IMG/VR virus record: IMGVR_UViG_3300045927_000329
Coordinates: 7,618-71,617 of that record
From: a virus
Reading direction: 5' to 3' (one strand)
DNA: 64,000 nucleotides
This document shows, piece by piece, positions 18,919 through 64,000 of this stretch; position 1 is the stretch's first letter, and the number at the start of each line of letters is the position of its first letter. The notes under the pieces were generated by a model, which did no database searches, was not told the DNA's origin, and saw only the letters and a program-made list of their open reading frames with translations. A program made the position numbers and the translations under genes.

Positions 18919-21228
18919 GTGTATCACCCCGACCTGATCGCCGAAGACGAAGCGGAGATCGTGCGCACCTTCCCGACCGTCTTCCCCTCGGGCGTCTTCC
19001 CGACCTACTCGGTCGAGGACTCCGCCGCGCTCACCGCCTCGGCGATGCAGGCCTACGACGACCTCGGCCGCAGCCGCCGCCCGCTCACCGCCGAGGAGAA
19101 CGCCTTCGTCAGCCACGCCAAGCTGCGCGTCATCTTCGACTTCCCGTGGTTCGCCGAGCGCTTCGTCTGGATCGACGAAGAAGGCCACGGCCTGCGGCGC
19201 CTCACGCCCTTCTGGGAGTCGCAGCAGATGGTCCTCGACCAGCTGGCGCGCCTCGAACTGGCGCGCGTCAAGGACGGCAGCCGCGACGGCCTGCTCCTGA
19301 ACATCCTCAAGGCGCGACAGCTCGGCGTCTCGACCCTCTCCGAAGCGCTCATCGCGCACCGCCTGGTGACCCGCCCGCACATCCGCGCGCTCAGCGGCGC
19401 CGACGTCGAGGAGCAGGCGGGCTATCTCTTCCGCATGGTCGTGCGCATCTACGACCAGCTGCCCTGGTTCCTCAAGCCCGACCGCCTCTACTTCACGAAG
19501 AACCGCGAGCTGACCCTCGCCAACTCCTGCTTCCTCAAGACCGCCTGGGGCAAGTCGACCCGCGGCGCGCTCCAGTCCATCTCCGGGGCGGAAGGCTCCA
19601 AAGGCGCCATCGGCCGCGGGCAGACCTACTCCTGCGTCCACATCTCCGAACTTCCCACCTGGGAGAACCCCGAGCAGCTCGACACCGCGCTCCTCCCGGC
19701 GATCCCGGTCAGCGCCGACACGCTCGTCCTCTACGAGGCGACCGCCGAGTACGCGGGCGACTGGTGGCACCAGCACTGGCTGGCGACCGCCGAGGGCGTC
19801 GGGCGCTTCAGGAACGTCTTCATCCCCTGGTCCGCGGAGCCGCGCAAGTACTCCCTCCCGCCGCCTCCGGGCTGGGTCCCCCTGGCCTCGACCCTCGCCC
19901 ACGCCGAGAAGTGCGAGCGCGACTCCCCGAAGTGGTACGGCGGTCGCACGGTGCGCCTCACCGCGCCGCAGCTCTACTGGTACGAGCAGACGCGCGCCTT
20001 CTACGAGAAGAAGGGACAGCTCTACAAGTTCCTCAAGGAGTATCCGGCCGACGATCACGAGTGCTTCCAGTACGCCGGCCGCTCCATCTTCACGCTCGAC
20101 CAGCTCGAAGCGATCGACCGCGCCGGCAGCCGCCGGCCGCTCAAGGACGTCTGGGCGGTGGAGCCGGCCAGCGAGATCGCCGCGCTCAAGCGCCTGGAGT
20201 TCCCAGCGGATGCGGCGCAGACCAGCTCCCTCGACCGCGGCCGCGCGCGCGTCCCGCTCGCCCCGCGCGTCCCGGGCACCGCCTCACCCTTAGCGCCCCT
20301 CACGCACCACGTCCCCCCGGGCTACGGCTTCCGCCGCCTCTCCCCCGAGCAGCTGCGCGAGATGCCGAGCCTGCGCAAGTCCGCCCTGGCCATCTGGGAG
20401 TATCCGCGCCTGCGCGGCTCGCGCCGCTACGTCCTCGGGGTCGACGTCGCCGACGGCCTCGGCCAGGACTACTCGATCATCGACGTCATCCGCCAGCCGA
20501 CCATCGAAGAGCCGGCCGAGCAGGTCGCGCAGTACTGCTCCAACGTCGTCGACGCCAAGGCGCTCGCCTTCATCTGCGACGCCATCGGCCGCTACTACTG
20601 CGACGGGGACGGCATCGAGGCGCTGGCGGCGATCGAGACCAACAACCACGGCCTGGCGACCCAGGACACGCTGCAGCTGCACCTCGGCTACGGCCACTTC
20701 TACCGCTGGGAGTACGCCGACGCCGCCGAGATGGACCGCCGCTACTCGACCCGCATCGGCTGGATGACCTCCCCGCGCACGCGCCCGATGCTCCTGGCCT
20801 ACTTCCACGGCGCCGTCACCAGCTTCGACCCGATCACGACACTCCCCGACTTCGTGCTCAACTCCCCGATCACGCGCAGCGAGCTGCGGCACCTGGTCAC
20901 CGAGACCACCCTCGGCGAGGCGGAGGCCGCGCGCGGCCAGCACGACGACGCGATCATGGCCGGCGCCATCGGCTACTACGTCGCCTGGCGCATGGCCGGC
21001 GGCGAGACCGAGCCGATCGCCGACCGGCGCCGCCGCAAAGCGGCCCTCGACCAGCTCGCCGCCAAGGGCGAGCAGCCCGTCGCCGACTGGCGCAACTCCC
21101 CGGCGACCTCTCTGGAAACCGACGACCTGGAGGAGATCGATCATGGCGGCACCGTCAGCGACGACGTCAGCTACGCGCTCAGCGACGAGCCCGACGGGCT
21201 CTTCTTCGACGACCGCAGCCGCGCATGA
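18919..21228 (+). CDS. terL: Terminase large subunit
   Basis: ILKARQLGVST Walker A, VHISE Walker B, YEATA, nuclease GVDVADGLGQDYS, IETNN, HDDAIMA. Confidence 0.95.
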   Translation: MYHPDLIAEDEAEIVRTFPTVFPSGVFPTYSVEDSAALTASAMQAYDDLGRSRRPLTAEENAFVSHAKLRVIFDFPWFAERFVWIDEEGHGLRRLTPFWESQQMVLDQLARLELARVKDGSRDGLLLNILKARQLGVSTLSEALIAHRLVTRPHIRALSGADVEEQAGYLFRMVVRIYDQLPWFLKPDRLYFTKNRELTLANSCFLKTAWGKSTRGALQSISGAEGSKGAIGRGQTYSCVHISELPTWENPEQLDTALLPAIPVSADTLVLYEATAEYAGDWWHQHWLATAEGVGRFRNVFIPWSAEPRKYSLPPPPGWVPLASTLAHAEKCERDSPKWYGGRTVRLTAPQLYWYEQTRAFYEKKGQLYKFLKEYPADDHECFQYAGRSIFTLDQLEAIDRAGSRRPLKDVWAVEPASEIAALKRLEFPADAAQTSSLDRGRARVPLAPRVPGTASPLAPLTHHVPPGYGFRRLSPEQLREMPSLRKSALAIWEYPRLRGSRRYVLGVDVADGLGQDYSIIDVIRQPTIEEPAEQVAQYCSNVVDAKALAFICDAIGRYYCDGDGIEALAAIETNNHGLATQDTLQLHLGYGHFYRWEYADAAEMDRRYSTRIGWMTSPRTRPMLLAYFHGAVTSFDPITTLPDFVLNSPITRSELRHLVTETTLGEAEAARGQHDDAIMAGAIGYYVAWRMAGGETEPIADRRRRKAALDQLAAKGEQPVADWRNSPATSLETDDLEEIDHGGTVSDDVSYALSDEPDGLFFDDRSRA

Positions 21229-22518: not shown

Positions 22519-22863
22519 GTGGCATGGCATGACTTCTGGGGTTCCTCACGGCTCTCGCTGGCGCCCGGTGCCTGGCCCGAGCGGGATGAGGTCGCGCTGC
22601 TGGCCGATCCTGGCCTCCCCGATCTCCCGCACCGGGTGGCGCGGGCGGGCGTGGTCTACCTGGGACTCGGCGGCGTCGAGCGCATCTGGCGCGGCAGCCC
22701 GACGGCGGAGGCGCGAGCCAACCTCGTGCGCGGGCAGCAGCGTCGCCGGGAGCGCGAGCACATGGGCGCCGCACGGGAGGACAGGAGCTGGATCACCCCG
22801 GAGATCGAGGCACGGATCGAGGCGGCCGTCCGCGATCGGCTCGCCCGCATGGGGAGGGCGTGA
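22519..22863 (+). CDS. Hypothetical protein (114 aa)
   Basis: RBS AGGAGG; starts MAWHDFW like the next gene. Confidence 0.6.
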   Translation: MAWHDFWGSSRLSLAPGAWPERDEVALLADPGLPDLPHRVARAGVVYLGLGGVERIWRGSPTAEARANLVRGQQRRREREHMGAAREDRSWITPEIEARIEAAVRDRLARMGRA

Positions 22864-23357
22864 TGGCCTGGCATGACTTCTGGTGTCAGCTCTGCGGGCA
22901 GGTGCTCGTCAACGTCGACGTCCCGGCCGCGATCGGCGCCCGCCTCGGTGCGCCGCTGCACTGCGGCCAGCCGACCAGCTGGCTCCCGGCCGTCGGCCGC
23001 ATGGACGCCTCCTCCGGTCCCGGCTTCGAGGCCTTCGACGCCTACGACGGGCAGAACCGCCCGGTGCGCGTCGACTCCCTCAAAAAACTCCGCGACATCG
23101 AGCGCCAGTCGGAGGTCGACGCGCGCAACGGGCTCGGCCAGCCGATCGTCTGGCGGCGCTTCAGCCAGGACCGCTCCAACCACGACGTCCACAGCCTCGC
23201 GCCGACCTTCCACCAGGAGCGGCCCGACCCGGCCTACGTCAAGAAGTTCGCCCCGGCCATCAAGCGCGACGGCGCCGAGGCGCCCGACGCCGCCTACGGC
23301 CCCGGCATCTCCGACGCGACGCCCAGTGCGCTCGACACCCTCGACTGGAAAGGCTGA
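22863..23357 (+). CDS. FmdB-like zinc-ribbon protein
   Basis: HDFWCQLCG...LHCG; position upstream of the portal is common for this type. Confidence 0.65.
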   Translation: MAWHDFWCQLCGQVLVNVDVPAAIGARLGAPLHCGQPTSWLPAVGRMDASSGPGFEAFDAYDGQNRPVRVDSLKKLRDIERQSEVDARNGLGQPIVWRRFSQDRSNHDVHSLAPTFHQERPDPAYVKKFAPAIKRDGAEAPDAAYGPGISDATPSALDTLDWKG

Positions 23358-26179: not shown

Positions 26180-27571
26180 ATGGCAGGCCAGAAGGCCGTC
26201 GTCGCCGATCCGTTCCGCGCGCCCACCGCGCCCGCCTGGCTCGGCAGGCTGCGCGACTGGGTCGATCAGCCCCGCCCGCCCGACTGGTGGACCACCCCGG
26301 TCGAGTTCCCCGGCAAGGCACTCGCGACCGAGGCCGCGCGCAGCGCGCTCCAGTGGCTGACCAACCCGCAGACCGCCGTTGACGCCCTCGCCACCACCGG
26401 CGTCCCGGGCGGCCCCCCGCGCCCGCCCGGCGTACGCGCTTTTCACGGCAGCCCGCACGACTTCGACCGCTTCGACTTCTCTCGAATCGGCAGCGGCCAG
26501 GGCGCGCAGACCTACGGCCACGGGCTCTACTTCGCCGAGCGCGAGCCGGTGGCGCGCACCTACCGCAACGATCTCTCGCCGCGCCCCGAGGTGCTCGTCG
26601 GCGGAGAGCCGCTCGACCAGTTCGGCTACATCCGCGGGGGCCAGCGTGTCCACGACCCGATCGCCGCTGTCGTCGGTGGGCGCCTCTCCTACGCTGCGAA
26701 CCGGGAGCGGCAGTTCGGCCGCACGCCGGACGTGGCGACCCTCGTGCAAAACCTCCGCAACGAGATCGCCGCGGCCACGCACAATGCCTCGCTCGCCACC
26801 TACAACCAGCTGGAGGATCAGCGCCTCATGCTGGACCGGATGATGGAGCGGGGGATTACCCTGACCGACCCGGGCCGCATGTACGAGGTGAACCTCGGCA
26901 TCGACCCCGCTCGCCTCCTCGACTACGACCGCCGCCTCGGCGAGCAGCCGCACGTCATCGAGGCGCTGCGCAAGCTCGGGCTCCAGGACCTCTACGGCGG
27001 CGAGGCGCTCGGCTTCCCGCTGCGCGACCCGCGCAAGGCGATCGAGTTTCCACTGGAGGCGACCGGCGGGCAGGCCTACGTCAATCTCGCGCGCGCGCAG
27101 GCGCCGCCGCTGCCGCCCGCCCTGCGCGACTCGATCCTCGCCGACCGCATCCCCGCTGACGAGCGTGCCGCCTCCGCCGCGCTGGCGCGCACCGGCATCC
27201 CGGGCCTGCGCTACCTCGATCAGTATTCGCGCGGCAGCGCGCCCGAGGTCGAGGCGATGCGTCGTCGGCTCGGCGATCTCCAGGAGAACCTGACCGCCTT
27301 CGATCGTCTGGTCGCGGCCGGCCAGGCGCGGCCCTCCGCGCCGCAGCGTCAGCACTTCCAGACACAGATCGACCTGCTCACCACGCGCCTGGCTCAGCTC
27401 CAGGAGCCGACGCGTAACTACGTCATCTGGGATCCCTCGGTCTCGATCGACATCCTCCGCAAGTACGGCCTGCTCGCCCCGCTCCTCGGCGGCGGCACCC
27501 TCGCCGGCCGCCAGCCGCAGCCGTCCTCCTCGCGCTCTTCGCCGCCGCCGGTCCTCGCGCCGTCGCACTAA
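26180..27571 (+). CDS. Protein with ART-PolyVal-like (ADP-ribosyltransferase fold) domain
   Basis: AFHGSPHDFDRFDFSRIGSGQGAQTYGHGLYFAE...MYEV...GIPGLRYLD...NYVIWD. Confidence 0.75.
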   Translation: MAGQKAVVADPFRAPTAPAWLGRLRDWVDQPRPPDWWTTPVEFPGKALATEAARSALQWLTNPQTAVDALATTGVPGGPPRPPGVRAFHGSPHDFDRFDFSRIGSGQGAQTYGHGLYFAEREPVARTYRNDLSPRPEVLVGGEPLDQFGYIRGGQRVHDPIAAVVGGRLSYAANRERQFGRTPDVATLVQNLRNEIAAATHNASLATYNQLEDQRLMLDRMMERGITLTDPGRMYEVNLGIDPARLLDYDRRLGEQPHVIEALRKLGLQDLYGGEALGFPLRDPRKAIEFPLEATGGQAYVNLARAQAPPLPPALRDSILADRIPADERAASAALARTGIPGLRYLDQYSRGSAPEVEAMRRRLGDLQENLTAFDRLVAAGQARPSAPQRQHFQTQIDLLTTRLAQLQEPTRNYVIWDPSVSIDILRKYGLLAPLLGGGTLAGRQPQPSSSRSSPPPVLAPSH

Positions 27572-27580
27572 AAGCGGCGC

Positions 27581-27790
27581 TCAGCGGCGCTCATCGGCGG
27601 CGGCGCCGTCCGCGGCGTCTCGGCGCTCGGCGAGCACCGCCTCGATCAGGCGGAGCCGGCCGTTACAGAAGTCGCGATCGGCCCCGCATTCGCGGTCGAG
27701 GAGGAAGGCCTGCTGCAGCAGGTACAGCTCCCGCGTGCGCATGGTGCCGTACACCAGGCGGAGGTCCGCGCCGGGGTCAGCGGCGGTCAT
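27581..27790 (-). CDS. Cassette ORF (69 aa, MTAAD...GAAADERR)
   Basis: Starts in one repeat and ends in the terminal degenerate repeat. Confidence 0.7.
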   Translation of the reverse strand: MTAADPGADLRLVYGTMRTRELYLLQQAFLLDRECGADRDFCNGRLRLIEAVLAERRDAADGAAADERR

Positions 27791-27802
27791 CGGCGGCGCC
27801 CG

Positions 27803-27964
27803 TCACTTCGAGTCGATCCAGCACTGCTCGCATAACACCTCTCCCGGTACGATCATCTCGAAGCGTTCGCACCACGCGCAGCGGCCCAACCGGAAATACC
27901 GCCAGCCACCGGTCAGCCACAGCCAGAGTACGCGGCACGGGTGAACAGCGTCAGCGGCGGTCAT
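27803..27964 (-). CDS. Cassette ORF (53 aa, CxxC...CxxC)
   Basis: Hand-translated MTAADAVHPCRVLWLWLTGGWRYFRLGRCAWCERFEMIVPGEVLCEQCWIDSK; stops at the first TGA of the next repeat. Confidence 0.65.
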   Translation of the reverse strand: MTAADAVHPCRVLWLWLTGGWRYFRLGRCAWCERFEMIVPGEVLCEQCWIDSK

Positions 27965-28181
27965 CGGCGGCGCCCGTCCCTCTATTCGCGGCGCGCCACT
28001 CGTTCACGAAGCAGAGAGCGCACACAGGCTGATTGAGATCAGGCGCGTCATGGAACCTGATCGTTCCGCCGATGTGGTCTTCGCACATGACGACCTGCCG
28101 GCACAGGCGACAGCGCACGAGCAGCCCGGCCTCTGCGAGCGTCTTGCCGCAGGTCACGCAGGCGAGGTCAGCGGCGGTCAT
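27951..28181 (-). CDS. Cassette ORF (76 aa, Cys-rich Zn finger)
   Basis: MTAAD...CVTC...CRLC...CEDH...CALC...GAADDRR. Confidence 0.7.
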   Translation of the reverse strand: MTAADLACVTCGKTLAEAGLLVRCRLCRQVVMCEDHIGGTIRFHDAPDLNQPVCALCFVNEWRAANRGTGAADDRR

Positions 28182-28356
28182 CGGCGGCGCCCTCCGCAGG
28201 CGTGAACGTGACGCCGCCCTCGCGCAGCAGGCACTCGATAATCTCTTTCACCGTCGTCAGCAACTTGCCGCTCGCGTCGTAGTGCTTCGTACCACGGGCG
28301 AGCGCCTCGGTGATCTCGCGCAGCAGGATGCGCGCGTTCTCATCAGCGGCGGTCAT
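28168..28356 (-). CDS. Cassette ORF (62 aa)
   Basis: MTAADENAR...GAADDRR. Confidence 0.7.
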   Translation of the reverse strand: MTAADENARILLREITEALARGTKHYDASGKLLTTVKEIIECLLREGGVTFTPAEGAADDRR

Positions 28357-28606
28357 CGGCGGCGCCCGTCACCTTCACCGGATACCCTGCTGCATCGTAG
28401 CTACGCGGGTCCGGGTAGTAGGCTTTCCCCAACGTCGAGAGCGTCTTGCGCCACTCCTTCTCGTAGTAGCACGCAGCCCCGCAGACGGCCTGATCGAACC
28501 CGTGCCATGTGCGGTTCACGGTGGCGGCGTAGGTCACGCCGCAGATGCAACAGAACAACGGCATCTCAGAATAGAGGGACATGGTCGTCCGGTCAGCGGC
28601 GGTCAT
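28343..28606 (-). CDS. Cassette ORF (87 aa, Zn-binding)
   Basis: MTAADRTT...CCICG...VCGAAC...GAADDRR. Confidence 0.7.
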   Translation of the reverse strand: MTAADRTTMSLYSEMPLFCCICGVTYAATVNRTWHGFDQAVCGAACYYEKEWRKTLSTLGKAYYPDPRSYDAAGYPVKVTGAADDRR

Positions 28607-28760
28607 CGGCGGCGCCCTTCCATCCGTTCGCGGCAAGCCACTGCGCCAAGTCGATGATCAGCAGCGCAACCTCCTGCGGCGTCAACGCGCATTCTGGCGA
28701 GTAGGGCCAGCGGTAGAGCGGCTCCGGTGGCCGTTCGTCTTTGCGCTTAGCGGCGGTCAT
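28593..28760 (-). CDS. Cassette ORF (55 aa)
   Basis: Hand-translated MTAAKRKDERPPEPLYRWPYSPECALTPQEVALLIIDLAQWLAANGWKGAADDRR. Confidence 0.65.
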   Translation of the reverse strand: MTAAKRKDERPPEPLYRWPYSPECALTPQEVALLIIDLAQWLAANGWKGAADDRR

Positions 28761-28986
28761 CGGCGGCGCCCGTCACCATGAAGTCGTGCGCCCAGTCCTG
28801 CCGATACGTGCAGTCCTCACAGACCCAGCCAGCGGGCGTCGCGACCAGCACGCGGTGCCGCGAATCTGTGCCGCAGGTGAACGGGTGGACCCGTCCGTTA
28901 TGCTGCCACCGATTCAGGGCGTCGATCTGTTCAGGCGTGAACGGTGCTCGAATGTGCATGTCGTGTGCTCTCTTAGCGGCGGTCAT
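28747..28986 (-). CDS. Cassette ORF (79 aa, Zn ribbon)
   Basis: APFTPEQIDALNRWQ...HPFTCG...LVATPAGWVCEDCTYRQDWAH. Confidence 0.75.
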   Translation of the reverse strand: MTAAKRAHDMHIRAPFTPEQIDALNRWQHNGRVHPFTCGTDSRHRVLVATPAGWVCEDCTYRQDWAHDFMVTGAADDRR

Positions 28987-29209
28987 CGGCGGCGCCCGTC
29001 ACGTAGTCGCGGCATTCTTGGCAGTCGCACGCCTTCCCGGTGCGCTCGCCACGAACATAGGCATTGCGCCCGTGGCATCGGTGTTCAAACGGCGCGCGAA
29101 CGTTGCACCCGTCGCAGATGATCGACGGCCGCGTCATCTCATATTCCTTGTAGCCTTGCCCCTTGTCGTGGTCTGTGGTGATGTCCATGCCTTGCCTCCA
29201 AGGTCGCAT
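28973..29209 (-). CDS. Cassette ORF (78 aa, Cys/His-rich)
   Basis: Starts in the 18-bp type-2 repeat and ends GAADDRR in the type-1 repeat. Confidence 0.65.
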   Translation of the reverse strand: MRPWRQGMDITTDHDKGQGYKEYEMTRPSIICDGCNVRAPFEHRCHGRNAYVRGERTGKACDCQECRDYVTGAADDRR

Positions 29210-29570
29210 AACCGTGATTACGTTTCCTTCGGCTCGATCAGTTTGAAGTCGCCGTCAACGAACTTCCGCAACGCCGCCTCTGCGGATCGGGCGCGGAGGA
29301 TCGCCGCTTGTTCGACCGCGTGATGCGCTGCCATGGCTTCCGTCAGCCGCGCCACCTCGCGCTCCAGCTGCTCGATCTCCGCGACGAAGCTCTCCAGCAG
29401 CTTGTACGCTGCGTAGGTGTCCGCGCCGTAGATCGTGCCGCCCGCGATCGGGTTGATGCCGGTGTCGCTGAGCAGCCCGACGACCTCCCCGCGCCCCTTC
29501 TCCAGGATCGCCTTCGCCCGCTGCAGGTCTTCTTCAATCGTGTCGTAGTAGGGCATAACCGTGATTACGT
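29206..29570 (-). repeat. Second junction repeat ACGTAATCACGGTTATGC x2
   Basis: Exact 18-bp copies at 29206-29223 and 29553-29570, each containing a TAA stop and the next ATG. Confidence 0.9.
29218..29556 (-). CDS. Hypothetical coiled-coil protein (112 aa)
   Basis: Bounded by the type-2 repeats. Confidence 0.7.
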   Translation of the reverse strand: MPYYDTIEEDLQRAKAILEKGRGEVVGLLSDTGINPIAGGTIYGADTYAAYKLLESFVAEIEQLEREVARLTEAMAAHHAVEQAAILRARSAEAALRKFVDGDFKLIEPKET

Positions 29571-30428
29571 CAACGAGTCCGGTGGCGCTTTACAGGTGCA
29601 AGTGGCGAACGCCAGATCGCAATCCGCTTCGTGTTCGCGTGAACACAACGAGCACCCGTTCGGCACCTGCGGATTGACCATCGTCAGCTTGAGCAGCCGC
29701 GCCACCTCGCGCTCCAGTTCCTGCACCCGTTCATGCGCCTCGTTCCACAGCGTCTGCCAGTCGTTGGCCCGGGTGTGCTCCTCGCCCGCCTTCTTGTCCC
29801 AGAAGTCGCGGTCCTCGGTCAGCCGCTCCACCTCGGCCTCCAGGTCCACGACGTCCGCGAACGGGACCATGCCCCCGACGGCCGCTTCGAGTTCGCTCAG
29901 TCGGGCGAGGTAGCGGTCGCCTTCGCGCGTCAGCGCCGCGACCTGTTCCCCGTACTGCGCCTGCATCGCTTTCATGGCGACCCAGTAGTTGTGTTGGTTG
30001 TCGACCAGTGCGACCTGCGCCTCGCTTAGCTTCTTCTGCAGCCCGTCGGCGGCGGCGTGGTAGGTGTCGGCCATGTGCGCGAGATCGTGCTCCAGCTCCG
30101 CGACCCGCGCCTGCCACTTCGCATCACACTTGGCGAGGTAGTTGTCGAGGTCTCTGGCGTGGTCGCGCTCCAGGTCCGCGACGCGCGCCTCCGCCGCCCG
30201 CGCCCGCTCGATCCAGTCCAGCCGCGTCCCCGCATACGACTGTTCGCCAATGGCGGCGTGGTACTCCGCCGTGAGCTGCAGGACCGCCTGCTCCAGCTCC
30301 GCGATGCGCGTCTGGAGCGTCGTGTCGAGCGCCTCCATCTCGCCGCGCTTCACATAGTGCGCCTCGAAGTCCTCGTCGCAGGTGAGGCACTCGCCGTTGT
30401 GATCGGGCTTGAAGTCGCTGCAGGCCAT
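29565..30428 (-). CDS. Long coiled-coil protein with terminal Cys motifs
   Basis: Heptad segments RIAELE/RVADLE/RVQELE; RBS GAGG before ATG 30428. Confidence 0.7.
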   Translation of the reverse strand: MACSDFKPDHNGECLTCDEDFEAHYVKRGEMEALDTTLQTRIAELEQAVLQLTAEYHAAIGEQSYAGTRLDWIERARAAEARVADLERDHARDLDNYLAKCDAKWQARVAELEHDLAHMADTYHAAADGLQKKLSEAQVALVDNQHNYWVAMKAMQAQYGEQVAALTREGDRYLARLSELEAAVGGMVPFADVVDLEAEVERLTEDRDFWDKKAGEEHTRANDWQTLWNEAHERVQELEREVARLLKLTMVNPQVPNGCSLCSREHEADCDLAFATCTCKAPPDSLT

Positions 30429-30439
30429 CGTCGTCGTCC

Positions 30440-30682
30440 TCACCGTCGCGGCTGGCGTGCCTTGAACGCGGCCAGCTGCACCGCGATCACGACATCGGCG
30501 AGGATCTCCTCGGCCGGCAGGTCCTGCCAGATCGCGAGCAGCCCCTCGTGCCGAGCGATGCGTAGCCGATCGACCTGGTCCCAGTCCAGGAGCGGCCCCG
30601 GGTGAACCGGACAGCCGCTCGTGCTGGTCGAGCGGTACTGGCCGTTGACGATGATGCAGGTGCAGTCGGGGTGGTGGGCCAT
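30440..30682 (-). CDS. Hypothetical protein (80 aa)
   Basis: MAHHPDCTC...CPVH; TGATG overlap. Confidence 0.6.
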   Translation of the reverse strand: MAHHPDCTCIIVNGQYRSTSTSGCPVHPGPLLDWDQVDRLRIARHEGLLAIWQDLPAEEILADVVIAVQLAAFKARQPRR

Positions 30683-30858
30683 CAGCTCGGCCTGATCAAC
30701 TCGTTGGTGATCTGCATCATCTCTTCCAGGATGGCGTGCATCCGCGACACGTTGGCGATCGACGCCTTGAGGCGTTCGATCTCGTCGCCCTGGGCCTTGA
30801 AGAGTTCCTGTTGAAATTCGTAGTGCTTGCGGATGAGGGCCTTCTCGTGTTCGGTCAT
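30682..30858 (-). CDS. Small coiled-coil protein (58 aa)
   Basis: Hand-translated MTEHEKALIRKHYEFQQELFKAQGDEIERLK...; RBS GGAGG/GAGG. Confidence 0.6.
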   Translation of the reverse strand: MTEHEKALIRKHYEFQQELFKAQGDEIERLKASIANVSRMHAILEEMMQITNELIRPS

Positions 30859-30882
30859 CGTCGTCGTCCTCGTCCTCCCCGG

Positions 30883-31095
30883 CTACTGCGGCAGGCGCGA
30901 CAGGTTCCACAACAGCCAGAAGATGCCGATGGTCAAGCCGGTCTGGATGACGAGCGTGCTCTTGATGACGGCGAGGTCGCGCTTCATGCTCGCCAGGTCG
31001 TCGAGCGAGGCGGCTTCCCTGGCTTCGGCCTCAGTCGCGGTGGGGACCCGTTTGAGCAGGTCGTAGAGCGCCATGTTCATCGTCTTGATCGGCAT
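30883..31095 (-). CDS. DUF1640-like coiled-coil plus TM protein
   Basis: NMALYDLL...LASMKRDL...C-terminal TM; paralog of 59542-59754. Confidence 0.6.
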   Translation of the reverse strand: MPIKTMNMALYDLLKRVPTATEAEAREAASLDDLASMKRDLAVIKSTLVIQTGLTIGIFWLLWNLSRLPQ

Positions 31096-31154
31096 CGTCG
31101 TCGTCCTCCGCGTCGTCGTCCCCCGCTAGCCTACCACCACCGCCCGCCCTCCCG

Positions 31155-31195
31155 CTTAGGGGGATCTTGACGACCCCCCGATCTGCCCCGACGCT
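31155..31195 (+). promoter_or_regulatory. Putative late promoter motif CTTAGGGGGATCTTGAC
   Basis: Related motifs at 15858, 16621 and 40574, all at starts of plus-strand gene blocks. Confidence 0.5.
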
Positions 31196-31203
31196 TCCAG
31201 ACC

Positions 31204-31362
31204 ATGCCGCTCACCGACTCCGGCTCCAAGGTCCTCCGCTCGATGACCTCGCAGTACGGCGCGGAGAAGGGCAAGCGCGTCTTCTACGCCACGGCGAATA
31301 AGAAACCAGGACTTGGGAAGAAGTGGCACGCCAAACGGGCAATGAGCAGCGGCCGGCGTTAA
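31204..31362 (+). CDS. Small basic conserved phage protein (52 aa)
   Basis: Hand-translated MPLTDSGSKVLRSMTSQYGAEKGKRVFYATANKK..., a motif I recognise from phage head regions. Confidence 0.7.
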   Translation: MPLTDSGSKVLRSMTSQYGAEKGKRVFYATANKKPGLGKKWHAKRAMSSGRR

Positions 31363-31441
31363 CGGTTGAACTACCGCGCACGGTATCGCGCGGCGTAAGC
31401 AGCTCCTCGGCGGTGACCCGACGGTCGCCAGGGTTCGGGCC

Positions 31442-31606
31442 ATGGCAGCGTTCGGCGGCAAGCAGGCGCCGCCCTTCGGGAAGAAGGGCGCAGGCGCACG
31501 CAAATCCAGCAAGGGTCGGAAGCCGACCAAGGACGAACGAGGCGGCTCGCCCGCCAGTAAGGCCTTGCGCCAGCCCCGTTCGATGCGGGGCGGAGGGCGC
31601 TACTGA
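31442..31606 (+). CDS. Small Lys/Arg/Gly-rich protein (54 aa)
   Basis: MAAFGGKQAPPFGKKG...; TGATG overlap with the next gene. Confidence 0.55.
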   Translation: MAAFGGKQAPPFGKKGAGARKSSKGRKPTKDERGGSPASKALRQPRSMRGGGRY

Positions 31607-32010
31607 TGTGGCCCCCGGCCGGCACCGGCTTCCCGGGCATGGGCCCGTCCTCTGGCGCCAGCGCGCTCGACATGCCGCCGCCGTCTCCCACGCCGATGGG
31701 CGGCAGCCCGCTCGACCCGCTCAGCCCGCGCGGCCTCGTCCCGCCCGGCCCGGTCCCGTCGCAGCAGATGCCGCCCGAGATCCTCACCGGTATCACGCAG
31801 TCGGCGCAGGCGATCTCCGACACCTTCGACGCCTGGAGCCAGGTGACGCCCAACCGCGCCGCCCAGCTCGCGCTCATCAAGGACATGCTCCAGCAATACC
31901 TCGCCGACGTGATGGCTGACGGCGCTGGACCGACGACTCCGACTGCCAGTGGTCCGGCGTTCCCTGGCGGCGGCATCGACCGCGGCATGGCAGGTGCCGG
32001 GGCGATCTAA
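31606..32010 (+). CDS. Pro-rich hypothetical head-region protein
   Basis: ORF with a central helical hairpin; high GC3. Confidence 0.6.
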   Translation: MWPPAGTGFPGMGPSSGASALDMPPPSPTPMGGSPLDPLSPRGLVPPGPVPSQQMPPEILTGITQSAQAISDTFDAWSQVTPNRAAQLALIKDMLQQYLADVMADGAGPTTPTASGPAFPGGGIDRGMAGAGAI

Positions 32011-32121
32011 CTGAAACACGCCACTTACCGACGACCGTGCTGAGAGGTGTCCCGGCTGCCCTTGCCCGCTCCCGCGGAGGGGTCCGCCTGGCCGCTTGCC
32101 TCGTGCGGAAGGAGTAGGTCG

Positions 32122-32949
32122 ATGGGTGCATTCGAGTCCGGTCAATCGTTCCTCGCTGGCGTGCTCGCCAAGCTCCCGCCGGAGCTGCGCGCACAGGCGG
32201 AGACGGTCTTCAGCGGAGACCTCGCGAAGGAGGCCGTCACCCTCGCCGGGGATGGCGTGCTGGCCCGCAGCGACTACAGCCGCAACATGGATCTGCTGCG
32301 CGAGAAAGAACGCGAGCTGACGCAGTACTACGAGCGCCTCAATGGTTGGTACTCCGACAACCGCACCGCGCTCGATCGCGCGCGCGAGCTGGAGACCGCC
32401 GCCGGTAACGGGAATGGTAACGGGAATCCGAATCCCAATCCCGCGCCTGCGCCCGGCCCGGCCCCCGCGCCCGCGCCGACTGGTGTCCTCTCGGCCGCCG
32501 ACATCCGCCGCATCGCGGACGAAGCGGTCAACGACGCCGGCCGCGACTACATCGCCGTCACCGCCTTCCTCGCCACGCAGGGCGCCCGGCACTCGCACCT
32601 GTTCGGTGAGCCACTCGACATGACCGAGCTGGTCGCCAATCCCAAGCTCGGCAAACCCGTCTACGGCGACCCGTCGCGAGTGTTCTCGCTGCAGGACGCC
32701 TACATCGAGAAGTACGGGGAGCGGCTCACGGCCAAGCACAAGGAGATCGAAGACAAACGGTTCAACGACGAGGTCGATCGTCGCCTGCAGGAACGGCTGA
32801 AAGCCACCACCTCCACGCATCCGTTCCCGCTGCGCGCCGAGTCCTCGCCCCTCGATGTGCTCTCGACCAAGGAAGGTCCCGCCGCCCACACGCTCGATTC
32901 GGCCGTCGCCGAGTACGAGCGCCTGCAGGCCGCGCGCGGGGTCGCCTAG
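32122..32949 (+). CDS. Putative capsid scaffolding protein
   Basis: Immediately upstream of the MCP; charged helical, SDYSR motif; RBS AAGGAG. Confidence 0.7.
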   Translation: MGAFESGQSFLAGVLAKLPPELRAQAETVFSGDLAKEAVTLAGDGVLARSDYSRNMDLLREKERELTQYYERLNGWYSDNRTALDRARELETAAGNGNGNGNPNPNPAPAPGPAPAPAPTGVLSAADIRRIADEAVNDAGRDYIAVTAFLATQGARHSHLFGEPLDMTELVANPKLGKPVYGDPSRVFSLQDAYIEKYGERLTAKHKEIEDKRFNDEVDRRLQERLKATTSTHPFPLRAESSPLDVLSTKEGPAAHTLDSAVAEYERLQAARGVA

Positions 32950-61284: not shown

Positions 61285-64000
61285 TCAGGCGATGACGCGC
61301 TGCAGGTCGCTCCAGTCCTCGCCGTCCTCGTCTTCGATCGGCTCGGCGACCCACTCGCTCTCGTAGCCCGGCACGACGATCTCCTCCATCGTCGCCCAGT
61401 CGTTGCCGGCCTTGGCCGCCACCCCGATCGCCACATGCGCGCCCGGCCGCCCCCAGCTCGCCGGCAGCGGCTGCTCGACCACCGGCCGCTGCATCTCCAT
61501 GCAGACGATCTCCACCACGCGGTCCCACAGCCGGTGCGGCACGTCGAGCAGCATCGAGTCATGGACCGGCGCGCGCAGCGGCGTCCGCCCGAAGTAGGCA
61601 TTGCCGATGTAGCTGCTGGAGTCCCGATCCGCGAACAGCCGCAGCAGCGCCTCGATCAAGATCCCCGCCGCGATCGACTGCGGGTAGAACGCCAAGACGC
61701 GCTTGCCGTCCTCGCCCAGGCTCACCCGGAACCACTGCCCGTTGATCTCGATGACCGGCGGCTCCTGCCCGAGCTTCCGGCACTTGGCGACCAGGCGGTA
61801 GTACTGCGTCGTCGTCAGGCGCTTGTAGTTGTAGACCGACCAGAACCAGTGCTTGTAGCCGAACGGGTGATCGCCGGGGCCTCCGAGGTAGTGCTGCCGG
61901 CCGGCGCGCTCCTGCGTGCGCGTCTGCCACGCCGCGACCTTCGGCGCCATCTGCTCGAAGATCTTCGCGTAGCGCTGCGCGGTCGCCTGGGTGGGGAAGA
62001 GGTGCGGGAACTGCAGCTGCATCCCGGGCACGGTCAGCCCGTACGCCCGCCCGTGGATATACCTCTTCGCCGGCTCGTAGATCTCGGGGTGGTCTTTCTT
62101 GGCGGCCTTGAACAGGGCGCGAAGCTCGCCGTCGCTGCGCCCGGGATCGTACGGCTCCCCCAAGACATGCGTCACGAGCGCGCCGTGGACGCCGAGCTTC
62201 GCGAGTCGATAATACTCCGCATCCTGCGCACACCAGCCGGTCTCCACGCTCTCGATCGCTGCGAAGTCGACCTCCAGCAGCCGACACCCCGGCGACGCGA
62301 CGATGCACTTCCTGAAGCCGGCCGCCAGCCCCGCCGGCCCGCCCTTGTCGCTGACCACGTTGGTGATGTTCGGGGAGGTATAAGACAATCGCCCGGTCGA
62401 GGGCTTGAAGGTCGGCACCGGATGCAGGCGGTCCTCCGCGTCGAGTCTTCTCTCCGTGCCCTCGACATAGGTTCCCTGCACCTTGCCGATCGCCCGGTAA
62501 TCCAACAGCGCCTGGTAGAACGGATCCTTCGTCGTGCGCGCCAGCCGCTCTAACGTCTCCCGGTTGGTCGACTCTTCGCTCTTGGTCTTCTTGGCGCGCC
62601 CGGGCCGGTGCTTGCGGTGCTTGATGTAGCTGAGGACCTGGGCGACGCTGTCCGGGTTGAACGGCTCCTGCCAGAACCAGCGGGTGACGGTGGCGACGAC
62701 AAGATCAACTCCAGCCCGTAGCGGTTCACCAGGTTGTAGATCTTCCGCAGCTGCGGGGCGTCGGCCGGTCGCTCCAGCGCCCACCGATTGAGGATCGCAA
62801 CGATGGCGCCGATGGACTTCCGTTGCGCCGCACGCGCGGCAGACCAGGACCTCTCGGAGGACGAGCTTCTCGACGATGCGCGCTTTGGCATACAGCTCCT
62901 GCTTCAGCTCACTGGTCGGCTTCCCCTTCCGCTTCTCCCCCTTCCGCGTGAACGCGCTCGCCTTGACATGCAGCACGTTGTCGAGCGGCCGGCGCACCAG
63001 CCCCTGCTTCGGCGTCAGCGGCGCCAGCGCCTCGGGCACCAGCGTCTGCAGCAGCTCGACCCGCTCGCGCGCCTTCTCGGCCAGCGACTGCTTGAAGGCC
63101 AGTAGTCTTGGCCGGTCGACCTTCACGCCCACCAGCTGCGCCGGCCGCAGCACCTCGGTCAGCAGGCGGTGCGTGTGCCGCATGGCCATCGGGTACATGC
63201 CCTGGTCGACCAGGTCCTGCACGATGCCGAAGCCCACCCGGTGCGTCTGCAACGCGTCGATCGCGCCGTAGCGCGCCGGCTCGCTGTCGGCCAGGTGCTT
63301 CCACGGGCCGAAGTCGCTGTAGAACGGCGCGACGAACCCGAGGCCCCGCGGCACGTCTGACTGCAGCTTCTTCCACAACCACATCAGGTCGACGGCCTTG
63401 CCCGAGTCCTCCTCGCCGAGCAGCGTCGCCTTCACCTGCCGGATGAAGTCGTACTCGCGGTTCCACATCCAGATGTGCCCCGGGCTCGCGTAGAGCCGCC
63501 GCAGCTCGTCGAGGTACGGGCCGGCGTGCGGGACGGTGACGCCCTCGTCCGGGTGGCAGGCGACGTTGTGCCGCAGCAGGTGGAAGCTGACGTCGTCGGC
63601 GCCGATCTCGCCCTCGTCCTGGCCGCCGGCCTTGTCCGGCGTCTCGACGTCGCTAGAGATCGGATAGGCGCCCGGGTCCTGCGTGCGCGCGGCGACCACC
63701 TGGTCGACCCAGGCGCGGAACCAGTCGATCGGCGGGTCGACCACCAGCGAGTGGTTGCTCACCGGCGCGCCGCTCGTCCGCGCCTGCTCGGCGCGTCGCA
63801 GGTCCCACAGCACGGTGCCGATCAGGTTGGTCGCGCCGCGCTGCAGGAAGCTCGGGTGGAAGGTGGGCACGACCCAGAAGCGGTTGGTCGGGTCGCGCAG
63901 GATCGCCCCGTGGAAGTCCTGCACCTTCAGCTTCTTCTTGTGCTCCAGGCCGAGCACCCGCCTGAGCGCGCTCATCCCCATCGGCACGACGACCTGCGGG
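61285..64000 (-). CDS. polA: Family A DNA polymerase fused to an N-terminal uracil-DNA glycosylase-like domain (5' end outside window)
   Basis: UDG-like VVPMG and VVPTFHPSFL; exonuclease SDVET; STGRLS...PN, motif A EVDFAAIE, motif B KRYIHGRAYG, PQSIAA, motif C VHDS. Confidence 0.9.
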   Translation of the reverse strand, partial: PQVVVPMGMSALRRVLGLEHKKKLKVQDFHGAILRDPTNRFWVVPTFHPSFLQRGATNLIGTVLWDLRRAEQARTSGAPVSNHSLVVDPPIDWFRAWVDQVVAARTQDPGAYPISSDVETPDKAGGQDEGEIGADDVSFHLLRHNVACHPDEGVTVPHAGPYLDELRRLYASPGHIWMWNREYDFIRQVKATLLGEEDSGKAVDLMWLWKKLQSDVPRGLGFVAPFYSDFGPWKHLADSEPARYGAIDALQTHRVGFGIVQDLVDQGMYPMAMRHTHRLLTEVLRPAQLVGVKVDRPRLLAFKQSLAEKARERVELLQTLVPEALAPLTPKQGLVRRPLDNVLHVKASAFTRKGEKRKGKPTSELKQELYAKARIVEKLVLREVLVCRACGATEVHRRHRCDPQSVGAGATGRRPAAAEDLQPGEPLRAGVDLVVATVTRWFWQEPFNPDSVAQVLSYIKHRKHRPGRAKKTKSEESTNRETLERLARTTKDPFYQALLDYRAIGKVQGTYVEGTERRLDAEDRLHPVPTFKPSTGRLSYTSPNITNVVSDKGGPAGLAAGFRKCIVASPGCRLLEVDFAAIESVETGWCAQDAEYYRLAKLGVHGALVTHVLGEPYDPGRSDGELRALFKAAKKDHPEIYEPAKRYIHGRAYGLTVPGMQLQFPHLFPTQATAQRYAKIFEQMAPKVAAWQTRTQERAGRQHYLGGPGDHPFGYKHWFWSVYNYKRLTTTQYYRLVAKCRKLGQEPPVIEINGQWFRVSLGEDGKRVLAFYPQSIAAGILIEALLRLFADRDSSSYIGNAYFGRTPLRAPVHDSMLLDVPHRLWDRVVEIVCMEMQRPVVEQPLPASWGRPGAHVAIGVAAKAGNDWATMEEIVVPGYESEWVAEPIEDEDGEDWSDLQRVIA

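Follow-up and report, generated by a model that had tools for sequence, protein, structure and literature searches.

A short repeat stands at the junctions between eight small genes of an uncultured soil phage, and on balance we favour the reading that it is a recombination-derived stop/restart linker, which would be translated via termination-reinitiation and could mediate exchange of the gene cassettes on either side. The phage genome (70% GC, complete, 71.6 kb, lytic-looking) was analysed in a window, that is, the whole stretch of 64,000 nucleotides. The linker joins small accessory genes that form an island on the minus strand. We propose that each cassette has been cut off from its native 3' end and now continues into the linker, in the same frame in six of seven cases, to a TGA or TAA stop. 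The linker ATG, 11 nt upstream of that stop, would open the next cassette in the +1 frame, giving a gene overlap of 14 nt. Because the linker has no Shine-Dalgarno (SD) site, ribosomes are proposed to load probably at c1, which has a strong GGAGG, and then to pass from gene to gene by termination-reinitiation; restart would occur at the linker ATG, and c2 and c4 might instead use their own ATG 10-13 nt after the stop. The perfect 23-nt core and its ragged, pair-specific extensions would be the footprint of homologous recombination or gene conversion, and the core would also be a substrate for such recombination. A crossover within the core would swap, delete or add whole cassettes and leave all reading frames intact.

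The junction repeat and its array

Every interval between the repeats is an ORF with a GC3 of 0.80-0.91 (Table 1). The junction 30-mer has seven matches at three or fewer mismatches, all on the minus strand, beginning at 27777, 27951, 28168, 28343, 28593, 28747 and 28973; none of 100 dinucleotide-preserving shuffles (0/100) gave any match. Two copies, at 27777 and 28343, match exactly; in two others, at 28747 and 28973, the sole change is TAA in place of the last TGA; and the first TGA is missing from those at 27951 (GGGAC), 28168 (GCGGA) and 28593 (TGGAA). A 23-nt core is invariant in all seven copies, including every synonymous site of both overlapping frames, and the cassettes flanking these identical cores are unrelated to each other. 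In the core of an eighth copy, J8, three nucleotides are inserted and one C is replaced by G; compared without gaps, it has 2 mismatches to the 22-mer. The ATG of J8 opens an ORF of only 8 codons. Beyond J8 comes TTTT that adjoins a GC-rich hairpin, and because of this arrangement J8 is likely to be the end of the operon. J8, with no gene behind it, is the only decayed copy, and the seven internal copies are perfect. All eight copies are confined to one 1.6-kb run and none lies elsewhere in the 71.6-kb genome; the repeat is asymmetric, has one orientation throughout and recurs with a start-to-start spacing of 154-250 nt.

Table 1. Positions in the window of the junction repeats (J) and cassettes (c).
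Feature	Position	Strand	Remarks
J1 (c1/c2)	28973..29002	-	full 30-mer; last stop TAA
J2 (c2/c3)	28747..28776	-	full 30-mer; last stop TAA
J3 (c3/c4)	28593..28622	-	core only, without first TGA; about 25 nt of extra upstream similarity to J6
J4 (c4/c5)	28343..28372	-	exact 30-mer; X1 and X3 contigs come in from different upstream sequence
J5 (c5/c6)	28168..28197	-	core only; flank supplies GGAGG 9 nt before ATG
J6 (c6/c7)	27951..27980	-	core plus GAC, without first TGA; 27951-27978 unchanged in X6 contig, flank differs
J7 (c7/c8)	27777..27806	-	exact 30-mer; only copy with first TGA used as stop (c7)
J8	27581..27610	-	degenerate terminal copy; stops c8
c1	28973..29188	-	71 aa, Cys-rich; own SD GGAGG 6 nt before ATG
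c2	28747..28986	-	79 aa from repeat ATG, 70 aa from M10; Zn-finger-like family
c3	28593..28760	-	55 aa; repeat holds the only ATG start
c4	28343..28606	-	87 aa from repeat ATG; family starts at M9
c5	28168..28356	-	62 aa; starts at repeat ATG; no homologue found
c6	27951..28181	-	76 aa, Cys-rich; no homologue found
c7	27803..27964	-	53 aa, CxxC...CxxC; out of phase, ends at first TGA of J7
c8	27581..27790	-	69 aa; last gene of the array

On the minus strand, the 30-mer has TGA at positions 2, 18 and 28, in three different frames. Its ATG is at position 17 and lies in the same frame as the TGA at position 2. This is the anatomy described in the original prediction, which also counted correctly the four full copies (27777, 28343, 28747 and 28973), two of them ending in TAA. 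Two other kinds of repeat were rejected. A CRISPR array, in which repeats of about 28-37 nt alternate with non-coding spacers of similar size, does not fit a spacing of 154-250 nt in which all intervals are ORFs with a GC3 of 0.80-0.91. In a tag conserved at the protein level synonymous change would be tolerated, and there is none at 21 free third positions.

Gene ends, repeat boundaries and relatives

Homologues with informative ends are available for three cassettes. c1 has a single homologue, its cluster mate P0126 (88 aa), whose C-terminus is different and longer, since P0126 runs on for about 25 other residues from the point at which c1 enters the repeat. c2 belongs to a widespread family of small, Zn-finger-like phage proteins that begins at about M10 and ends just after WAHDFM; 17 of the 19 aligned homologues start within about 2 residues of M10, and the VTGAADDRR tail of the repeat is present in 0/19. 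The c4 family gave 95 hits, none of which (0/95) matches before residue 6 or past residue 81 of 87, and residue 9 of c4 is aligned to the hit's own residue 1 in 34 of them (both counts by eye). At the DNA level, c4 and its homologue in the relative L179 are similar from the native ATG to AAGGT, which is the edge of the repeat, and the corresponding gene of L179 ends in an ordinary ATGA overlap. As judged from these alignments, the repeat has replaced the native 3' ends of c1, c2 and c4. For c5 and c6, the homologue search matched only the cassettes themselves, and tblastn of c3, c7 and c8 against the fetched loci gave no hits. Pfam and PHROGs returned nothing at or below thresholds for the cassettes; c6 against zf-MYND (E = 0.025) fell short of the cut-off. 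Among 49 loci encoding c2 homologues, neither the core at five or fewer mismatches nor a homologue of another cassette was found.

The extension of the repeat beyond its core depends on the pair compared: J1, J2, J4 and J7 share 5-6 nt, J3 and J6 share about 25 nt, and J5 shares none. Because discrete elements and site-specific recombination sites have fixed ends, such ragged boundaries argue against both, and a discrete mobile element was rejected on the ground that the ends are ragged and pair-specific. A scan of 20 larger proteins revealed no recombinase, which counts against the linker reading, and 29 distinct larger proteins (30 queries) included no integrase. Elsewhere in the island, adjacent junctions also share local sequence, GAGGACGACGACGATG occurring three times and ACGTAATCACGGTTATGC twice. 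The island sits in a variable region; the portal-to-p300 gap is 6270 nt here versus 731-5334 nt in 40 relatives.

The window was compared with contigs of other soil runs. In X1 and X3, one contig each carries an identical foreign stretch of 255 letters that leads into the repeat at 28343-28373. In the X6 contig, 27951-27978 is kept unchanged; its first 81 letters match the window, with 5 substitutions and 2 indels that are all in the flank, and the other 330 letters are unlike the window. In these contigs, the same repeat lies next to different sequence. Breaks of Logan contigs at the four 30-nt-identical copies were taken as an effect of the assembler (k = 31) and not as variation. Because no second array was found, a cassette swap exactly at the repeat is hinted at by the short Logan contigs and not seen between assembled genomes. 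Deletions would be expected too, because the direct repeats lie 154-250 nt apart; no clean repeat-to-repeat deletion joint was seen in the soil-run contigs, and this counts against the linker reading. Separately, one contig of X1 (side 31) has a joint from 28375 to 28749, which is off the repeat register and was not used as evidence.

The repeat was also sought in sequence collections and in related phages. The exact 22-mer had no match in IMG/VR, an 18-mer had one, inside a coding region and at no junction, and a 16-mer had at least 117 single matches, with no locus carrying two among the matches listed. A search of 3 kb against GenBank phages by blastn gave no match. In metagenome contigs, a 19-mer, a pattern too short to inform, had at least 120 single matches; among those listed, each of 43 loci had one near match to the 25-mer core and none had two. 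The 23-mer had one single match in GTDB genomes, on an actinobacterial chromosome. Among 55 loci of portal relatives, the core at four or fewer mismatches was found in 0/55, one locus having a single match with 5 mismatches, and no ORF ended in GAADDRR or started with MTAA. The island is absent from the portal-to-p300 position in all 40 relatives with a measurable interval (40/40), and the one distant locus found through the neighbour protein p463 lacks the repeat. A second array with the same repeat was thus not found in the collections scanned.

This distribution bears on an explanation that we regard as possible, if rather unlikely. The repeat might be a frozen accident, the scar of array growth by serial duplication of one ancestral ATGA-type junction in the course of recent insertions; apart from supplying a stop and a start it would serve no purpose today, and the identity of the copies would reflect youth and not selection. 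The island is probably young, since it is absent in the 40 measured relatives and the repeat is absent in the 55 loci and the other collections; however, selection on translation through the repeat is suggested by the upstream joins, six of seven in one frame, and by the downstream joins, in frame at both junctions that can be tested. Within the core lies an ATGA overlap of the classical kind that serves none of the present ORFs and might have come down from an ancestral gene pair, and the sequences shared at other island junctions (GAGGACGACGACGATG and ACGTAATCACGGTTATGC) suggest that junction duplication is a general by-product. A mere scar does not account well for the decay of the terminal copy, which has no downstream gene, next to seven perfect internal copies, nor for the same repeat beside other sequence in other soil runs. 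A wider version of the linker reading is also doubtful at present. According to it, the linker would be a portable, frame-tolerant stop-and-restart adaptor that captures foreign gene fragments and relays their expression from one ribosome-loading site; the fragments would be stripped of their ends and in some cases of their ribosome site as well, the cassettes would be traded by recombination in the 23-30 nt, and all three stops would be used across the population.

Starts, stops and reading frames

The duplex of the 23-nt core with the anti-SD sequence has -2.5 kcal/mol; the background averages -3.5 and gene starts average -5.8. Among phage gene starts, 37 of 56 reach -4 kcal/mol or better, versus 38% of random sites, and the GGAGG of c1 gives -9.3 kcal/mol. 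SD-like motifs derived from the flank are GGAGG, 9 nt before the ATG at 28168, and GAGGG, 12 nt before the ATG at 27951. The predicted absence of an SD was borne out for the invariant core, in a phage whose genes mostly have such a site.

There is no plausible start other than the repeat ATG for c3, c5, c6 and c7, and c6 needs it because its first Cys pair begins at residue 8. An independent gene caller chose the repeat ATG for c3, c4, c5, c6 and c8. The native ATG of the c2 and c4 families lies 8-9 codons downstream of the repeat ATG in the same frame. Because both families begin at this internal ATG and not at MTAA, the repeat ATG is not the native start of c2 and c4. Their own ATGs have weak SDs, of -4.5 (c2) and -3.2 (c4), and the two may be translated from them, in which case the linker ATG would be dispensable there.

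Termination-reinitiation at short overlaps is established, the contribution of the SD ranging from none to essential, according to PMC6728339; there, reinitiation fell by 60-90% in three of five E. coli pairs when the SD was removed, and was lost completely in a fourth pair. PMC10666635 also treats the process as established and reports that overlaps of 4 and 1 nt dominate coupled gene pairs. Because a 14-nt overlap without an SD is an uncommon geometry for coupling, it speaks against the linker reading. None of the 6 listed runs is an RNA run.

No shared hairpin was found at the junctions. All eight junction windows (8/8) are less stable than their own shuffles (z +0.3 to +1.9), which suggests that the start region is open. 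No dyad symmetry or inverted repeat was found in the repeat, and Rfam gave no match in 27000-32200 at E up to 1. A consensus scan of both strands in 27000-32500 found 0 promoter-like sites against 0.5 expected, and no terminator-like site coincides with a repeat copy.

We consider it unlikely that the 23-mer around the start codon is an operator, bound by a phage or host protein or a small RNA that switches all cassettes together. The T4 translational repressor RegA provides a comparable case of common switching of genes around the start codon. An operator would explain nucleotide identity across the start codon of seven consecutive genes and the same orientation in all copies; it would leave unexplained the ragged, pair-specific extensions and the replaced gene ends. 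As the copies share no RNA hairpin, the factor would have to recognise DNA or a single-stranded sequence, and neither a candidate binding protein nor an Rfam match was found. Such a role has been proposed for the start-associated sequences (SAS) of mycobacteriophages, and PMC3203893 leaves it open; the present repeat, however, is limited to one 1.6-kb run of a 71.6-kb genome.

The last stop of a full copy ends six ORFs (c1-c6) and the last stop of J8 ends c8, which agrees with the seven ORFs predicted to end there. c7 (27803-27964) has its stop at the first TGA of J7, as was also predicted, and GC3 is 0.80 in its frame versus 0.57 in the alternative one. Two different stops thus serve in this genome, and at least two frames are used. 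The ATGA is the upstream stop of none of the seven ORFs (0/7); their ends lie 11 nt beyond the ATG in six cases and 12 nt ahead of it in the seventh. Cassettes joined in frame share a ...GAADDRR tail, and the C-terminus of c1, VTGAADDRR, is coded by the repeat. Upstream frames at J1-J7 count 6 for frame A, 1 for frame B and 0 for frame C; with random joining, the probability of at least six of seven in one named frame would be about 0.007.

The stronger proposal, that the 30-mer was selected as a frame-independent terminator-initiator whose three stops close inserts in any frame, is improbable to us on this frame use of 6:1:0 at seven full junctions. Stops in three frames within 30 nt are indeed rare (0.05% of all 30-nt windows and 1/57 other gene ends); they count as one event, because the four full copies derive from one sequence. 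This genome makes use of two of the three stops. Only four of the eight copies have the first TGA, and in three of these four it is merely part of the Val-Thr codons of the in-frame tail. The odd stop of c7 and the in-frame end of c4 are a single G apart (AAGGTGAC vs AAGTGAC), and for this reason a one-base deletion explains the c7 stop no less well than design. No ORF here stops at the ATGA; weak support for its use comes from the foreign contig in X1 and X3, in which GC3 is highest in the third frame, ending at ATGA (30 letters, assessed by eye). Of the original prediction, termination of the upstream ORF at the junction and opening of the next by its ATG were borne out, and closing independent of frame was not, since frame use is strongly biased. 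The set of three stops proved to be no general property, being complete in only 4/8 copies, and the inserts are genes with high GC3, of which c1, c2 and c4 have relatives, so that expression of arbitrary DNA was not supported.

Fusion of the cassettes by recoding is highly improbable: a +1 shift at CGC-UGA-C, or readthrough of the c7 UGA, would give multi-domain zinc-finger polyproteins, and a +1 step at the last stop does fall exactly into the downstream frame, with UGA-C, a weak stop context, in 4/7 copies; however, a slippery codon is lacking, as is a stimulatory SD at a suitable distance, TAA-G stands in two of the copies, and the members of the c2 and c4 families are small proteins that occur on their own.

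Comparison with known systems

Phages hold most of the unexplained small genes, and it is understood only in part how such genes are acquired, stay expressed and are traded. The linker would preserve the frames whatever cassette is swapped, and the native 3' ends of c1, c2 and c4 are overwritten. If coupling and exchange are both true, the repeat would offer a compact natural rule for scarless polycistronic gene stitching in high-GC hosts, and a sequence marker for accessory-gene hot spots in uncultured phages. Otherwise, it would be a clear case of local junction duplication building mini-gene arrays.

Integron cassettes are unrelated, promoterless small genes in one orientation, with a recurring site between them, and are expressed from the front of the array. 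An integrase recombines them at attC sites, which are imperfect inverted repeats. The linker likewise recurs in a one-orientation array of unrelated, promoterless small genes that would be expressed from the front. Unlike attC, it has no inverted repeat and no conserved fold, and its boundaries are ragged. An integron array was rejected, as there is neither dyad nor fold, and no integrase among 29 distinct larger proteins (30 queries).

In coupled overlaps of the ATGA and TGATG kind, as described by Huber et al. (2019, PMC6728339; 2023, PMC10666635), the stop and the next start are a few nucleotides apart, as in the linker. Junctions in the relatives are of this ordinary coupled type, with GGAGG-N-CGCTGATG, and ATGA after the c4 homologue. 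In contrast to the canonical 4-nt or 1-nt overlap, the linker has an overlap of 14 nt, ATGA is not the stop used (0/7) and the core has no SD. It also differs from ordinary coupled overlaps in that its sequence recurs, letter for letter, at seven gene pairs in a row.

The PeSLs (promoter-early stem-loops) of T4-type phages combine a promoter with a terminator and do not code for protein, and recombination between neighbouring copies shuffles, deletes or circularises genes, according to Arbiol et al. (2010, PMC2839356); a second PeSL paper is PMC4122927. PeSLs and the linker are alike as short repeats between small, mostly ORFan genes in a hyperplastic phage region. The strong sigma-70-like early promoter of the PeSL has no counterpart in the linker (0 promoter-like sites in 27000-32500), nor has its terminator stem-loop, as there is no shared hairpin and no terminator-like site at the repeat. 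The documented joints of shuffling, PeSLs, are non-coding; here, the joint lies inside coding sequence, overlaps stop and start and would need no ribosome-binding site. Recombination has been demonstrated for PeSLs, whereas for the linker it is inferred.

The SAS and ESAS of Cluster K mycobacteriophages, as described by Pope et al. (2011, PMC3203893), are 13 bp long (SAS), contain AGGAG and lie 3-7 bp upstream of the start; SAS are spread in many copies through the genome's non-structural half and are conserved throughout the phage cluster. SAS and the linker are both asymmetric, have one orientation and stand at the start codons of unrelated non-structural genes, mostly ATG, sometimes with the upstream stop included, and for both a role in translation initiation is suspected. 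Unlike SAS, the linker is 23-30 nt long, includes the ATG itself and has a core without AGGAG or GGAG. Its 8 copies form one contiguous 1.6-kb array, and the core occurs in 0/55 related loci. By analogy, the best reading is that the linker works like the T4 PeSLs or the mycobacteriophage SAS and is a member of neither.

Repeat copies and cassette genes

The source record, of which the window covers bases 7618-71617, has 71,617 bases and direct terminal repeats and is rated complete. The window has a GC content of 70%; tail and lysis proteins, identified by PHROG matches, are encoded to the right of the terminase. The repeat and ORF counts of the original prediction were correct, the repeat lying on the minus strand. 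With at most 3 mismatches, the 30-mer occurs seven times, and 0 of 100 shuffles contained a match. An eighth copy is degenerate, and no further copy was found in the 71,617-base record. The copies form the junctions J1 to J7 between the small genes c1 to c8, and J8 ends c8.

Features of the window and frames of the repeat
Feature	Position	Strand	Remark
Large terminase	18919-21228		PHROG match
TGGCATGACTTCTGG	22525-22539, 22869-22883		exact duplicate; starts of two adjacent plus-strand genes, between terminase and portal
463-aa protein	26180-27571	+	adjoins array
Degenerate copy (J8)	27581-27610	-
Repeat copies J7, J6, J5, J4	27777, 27951, 28168, 28343	-
Repeat copies J3, J2, J1	28593, 28747, 28973	-
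Array	27800-29400		GC 0.62-0.67
ACGTAATCACGGTTATGC	29206-29223, 29553-29570	-	TAA stop, 8 nt, ATG; bracket 112-aa gene
24 nt encoding LEREVARL	29344-29367, 29694-29717		identical; in 112-aa and 287-aa genes
287-aa coiled-coil gene	29565-30428
GAGGACGACGACGATG	30426-30441, 30856-30871, 31093-31108	-	same island
DNA polymerase	61285-63987		PHROG match
Full 30-mer, frame A			VTGAADDRR, stop
Full 30-mer, frame B			stop, RAPP, MTAAD; first TGA in frame with ATG
Full 30-mer, frame C			DGRRR, stop (TGA of ATGA)

The invariant 23-nt core, GGGCGCCGCCGATGACCGCCGCT, is followed by GA or AA and preceded by GTGAC in four copies and by GGGAC, GCGGA or TGGAA in the remaining ones. Identity beyond the core is pair-specific: J1, J2, J4 and J7 share 5-6 bases, the J3/J6 pair has about 25 in common, and J5 shares none. 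These ragged edges fit recombination or conversion tracts and do not fit an element with fixed ends. Because the seven copies agree at every synonymous position despite unrelated gene bodies, the constraint on the repeat, or its shared ancestry, lies at the DNA or RNA level, not at the protein level.

Every interval between repeats is a minus-strand ORF with a third-position GC of 0.80-0.91. The c2-c8 genes are open from the repeat ATG, and c1 begins at its own ATG with GGAGG upstream. As predicted, two repeat stops are in use: c1-c6 run in frame A into the last stop of the repeat that follows, and the first TGA of J7 terminates c7. The c8 gene ends inside the degenerate copy. The end of c7 reads AAG-TGA-C and that of c4 AAG-GTG-AC; one lost G would account for the early c7 stop. 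For c3, c5, c6 and c7 there is no credible start except the repeat ATG, and an independent gene caller chose this ATG for c3, c4, c5, c6 and c8.

Origin of the cassettes and their surroundings

The c2 family comprises widespread small Cys/His phage proteins (27 hits in one search, 49 viral loci in another). Among 19 aligned homologues, 17 start within about 2 residues of c2 Met10, which is also the c2 start called in the database; the other two have longer N-termini unrelated to the repeat-coded one, and none has the VTGAADDRR tail. For c4, 95 hits were obtained. In 34 of them the alignment runs from residue 9 to the homologue's own residue 1, and none (counted from the hit table) matches before residue 6 or past residue 81 of 87. 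Fetched c4 homologues begin M-S/A/P-L/I-F/Y-S, like c4 from Met9. DNA similarity between c4 and its homologue in L179, a locus of a related phage, begins at the native ATG and continues up to AAGGT, ending at the repeat; the L179 gene stops at a plain ATGA shared with the gene that follows. An 88-aa cluster mate of c1 has about 25 different residues where c1 becomes VTGAADDRR. No homologue of c5 or c6 was found. These homologue ends and starts show that the native 3' end was overwritten by the repeat in all three informative cassettes (c1, c2, c4), and that the native start survives in both c2 and c4 as an internal Met, in frame and 8-9 codons past the repeat ATG. GC in the array is lower than in the flanking head genes (0.70-0.75), which is consistent with foreign origin of the cassettes; GC of the repeat is about 77%.

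We compared 55 IMG/VR loci encoding a portal 38-88% identical to that of the window. None contained ORFs ending GAADDRR or the core at up to 4 mismatches; one locus contains one match at 5 mismatches. In the 40 loci having both landmarks, the portal and p300, the interval between them is 731-5334 nt vs 6270 nt here, and it lacks the minus-strand island. Small plus-strand genes of the relatives in this interval have ordinary GGAGG-N-CGCTGATG junctions with 70-90% identity. This degenerate motif (GGAGG, a few bases, CGCTGATG), a Shine-Dalgarno (SD) sequence with a TGATG overlap, was seen in L207 (13762-14407), L220 (4858-5809) and L211 (7943-8597), the last with three copies having exactly a common 16-mer. 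In L179 and L204, homologues of c4, the 112-aa gene and the 287-aa gene (first 26 residues) are found some 9 kb upstream of the portal and on its strand. The island module has changed place in this group of phages, apparently through relocation and inversion into the portal-to-p300 hot spot. By eye, ORF 30440-30680 also has an L179/L204 homologue (window 27581-31600 against L179 1-3600). The 463-aa protein matches ART-PolyVal weakly (E = 4.9e-4; 21.3 bits vs a cut-off of 31.2) and has a homologue at the same position in only 4 of the 55 relatives.

Other island junctions carry their own local repeats, GAGGACGACGACGATG and ACGTAATCACGGTTATGC, so sharing of sequence by neighbouring junctions is a habit of this region. 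Each GAGGACGACGACGATG copy lies at a minus-strand gene start at the island head (u292, with ATG at 30428, a 58-aa gene and a 70-aa gene); in contrast to the 30-mer, this start-associated repeat includes a canonical SD. The ATG offered to c1 by ACGTAATCACGGTTATGC is probably unused because GGAGG precedes the next ATG.

The array is present in six soil runs. Their Logan contigs are interrupted at each of the four copies that are identical over 30 nt, which is the expected outcome at k = 31. One contig (run X4) spans 27000-28411 and confirms the order from c8 to c4. X1 and X3 each have a contig in which one and the same foreign sequence of 255 letters leads into repeat 28343-28373. In an X6 contig, 27951-27978 is unchanged, the 5 substitutions and 2 indels of the first 81 matching letters all lie in the flank, and the other 330 letters are unlike the window. 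These short contigs hint that, in nature, other cassettes are joined by this linker too. One X1 contig joins 28375 to 28749, skipping 373 nt out of register with the repeats; its shorter side has 31 letters.

Translation and possible roles of the linker

A GGAG-type SD precedes most genes of this phage, with duplex energies of -4 kcal/mol or below at 37 of 56 starts vs 38% of random sites (means -5.8 vs -3.5). The repeat core scores -2.5 against that gene-start mean of -5.8. The original prediction holds in part: the repeat is a stop-plus-start junction lacking an SD. Only the flanks of J5 (GGAGG, 9-nt spacer) and J6 (GAGGG, 12 nt) add SD-like letters. A scan of the island found no promoter-like site, no Rfam family matched, and the eight junction windows have no common hairpin, all folding less stably than their own shuffles. 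We lean towards a linker that was made by recombination, is prone to it, and keeps captured genes translatable by coupling. In the simplest scheme, ribosomes would load at c1, terminate 11 nt beyond the linker ATG, and restart there or, in c2 and c4, at the native ATG 10-13 nt downstream. According to two papers, termination-reinitiation at short overlaps is established, with an SD need ranging from none to essential (PMC6728339), and coupling drops steeply as distance grows (PMC10666635). Coupling efficiency at the linker junctions is uncertain, because a 14-nt overlap without SD is unusual.

The repeat could instead be a young scar without function, which we consider unlikely; decay is confined to the copy that no gene follows. 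That copy is part of a GC-rich hairpin with TTTT after it, and lies at the operon's convergent end. An operator for a factor acting on the cassettes is a more doubtful reading. Still less probable is the strong form of a universal junction, by which stops in all three frames would have been selected so that any insert is terminated. The full set exists in four copies and is absent from the other 4 of 8, and the ATGA stop, kept in 8 of 8, is used by no ORF. Three-frame stops within 30 nt are rare in this phage, at 0.05% of windows and 1 of 57 other gene ends, and this is a single mildly unusual event because the four full copies are one sequence. Frame use at J1-J7 is 6:1:0. A selected frame-independent design is unsupported by either copy counts or frame bias. 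Recoding of the cassettes into fusions is scarcely credible.

The repeat works like T4-type promoter-early stem-loop cassettes and like the start-associated sequences of Cluster K mycobacteriophages, yet it does so without the defining features of either.
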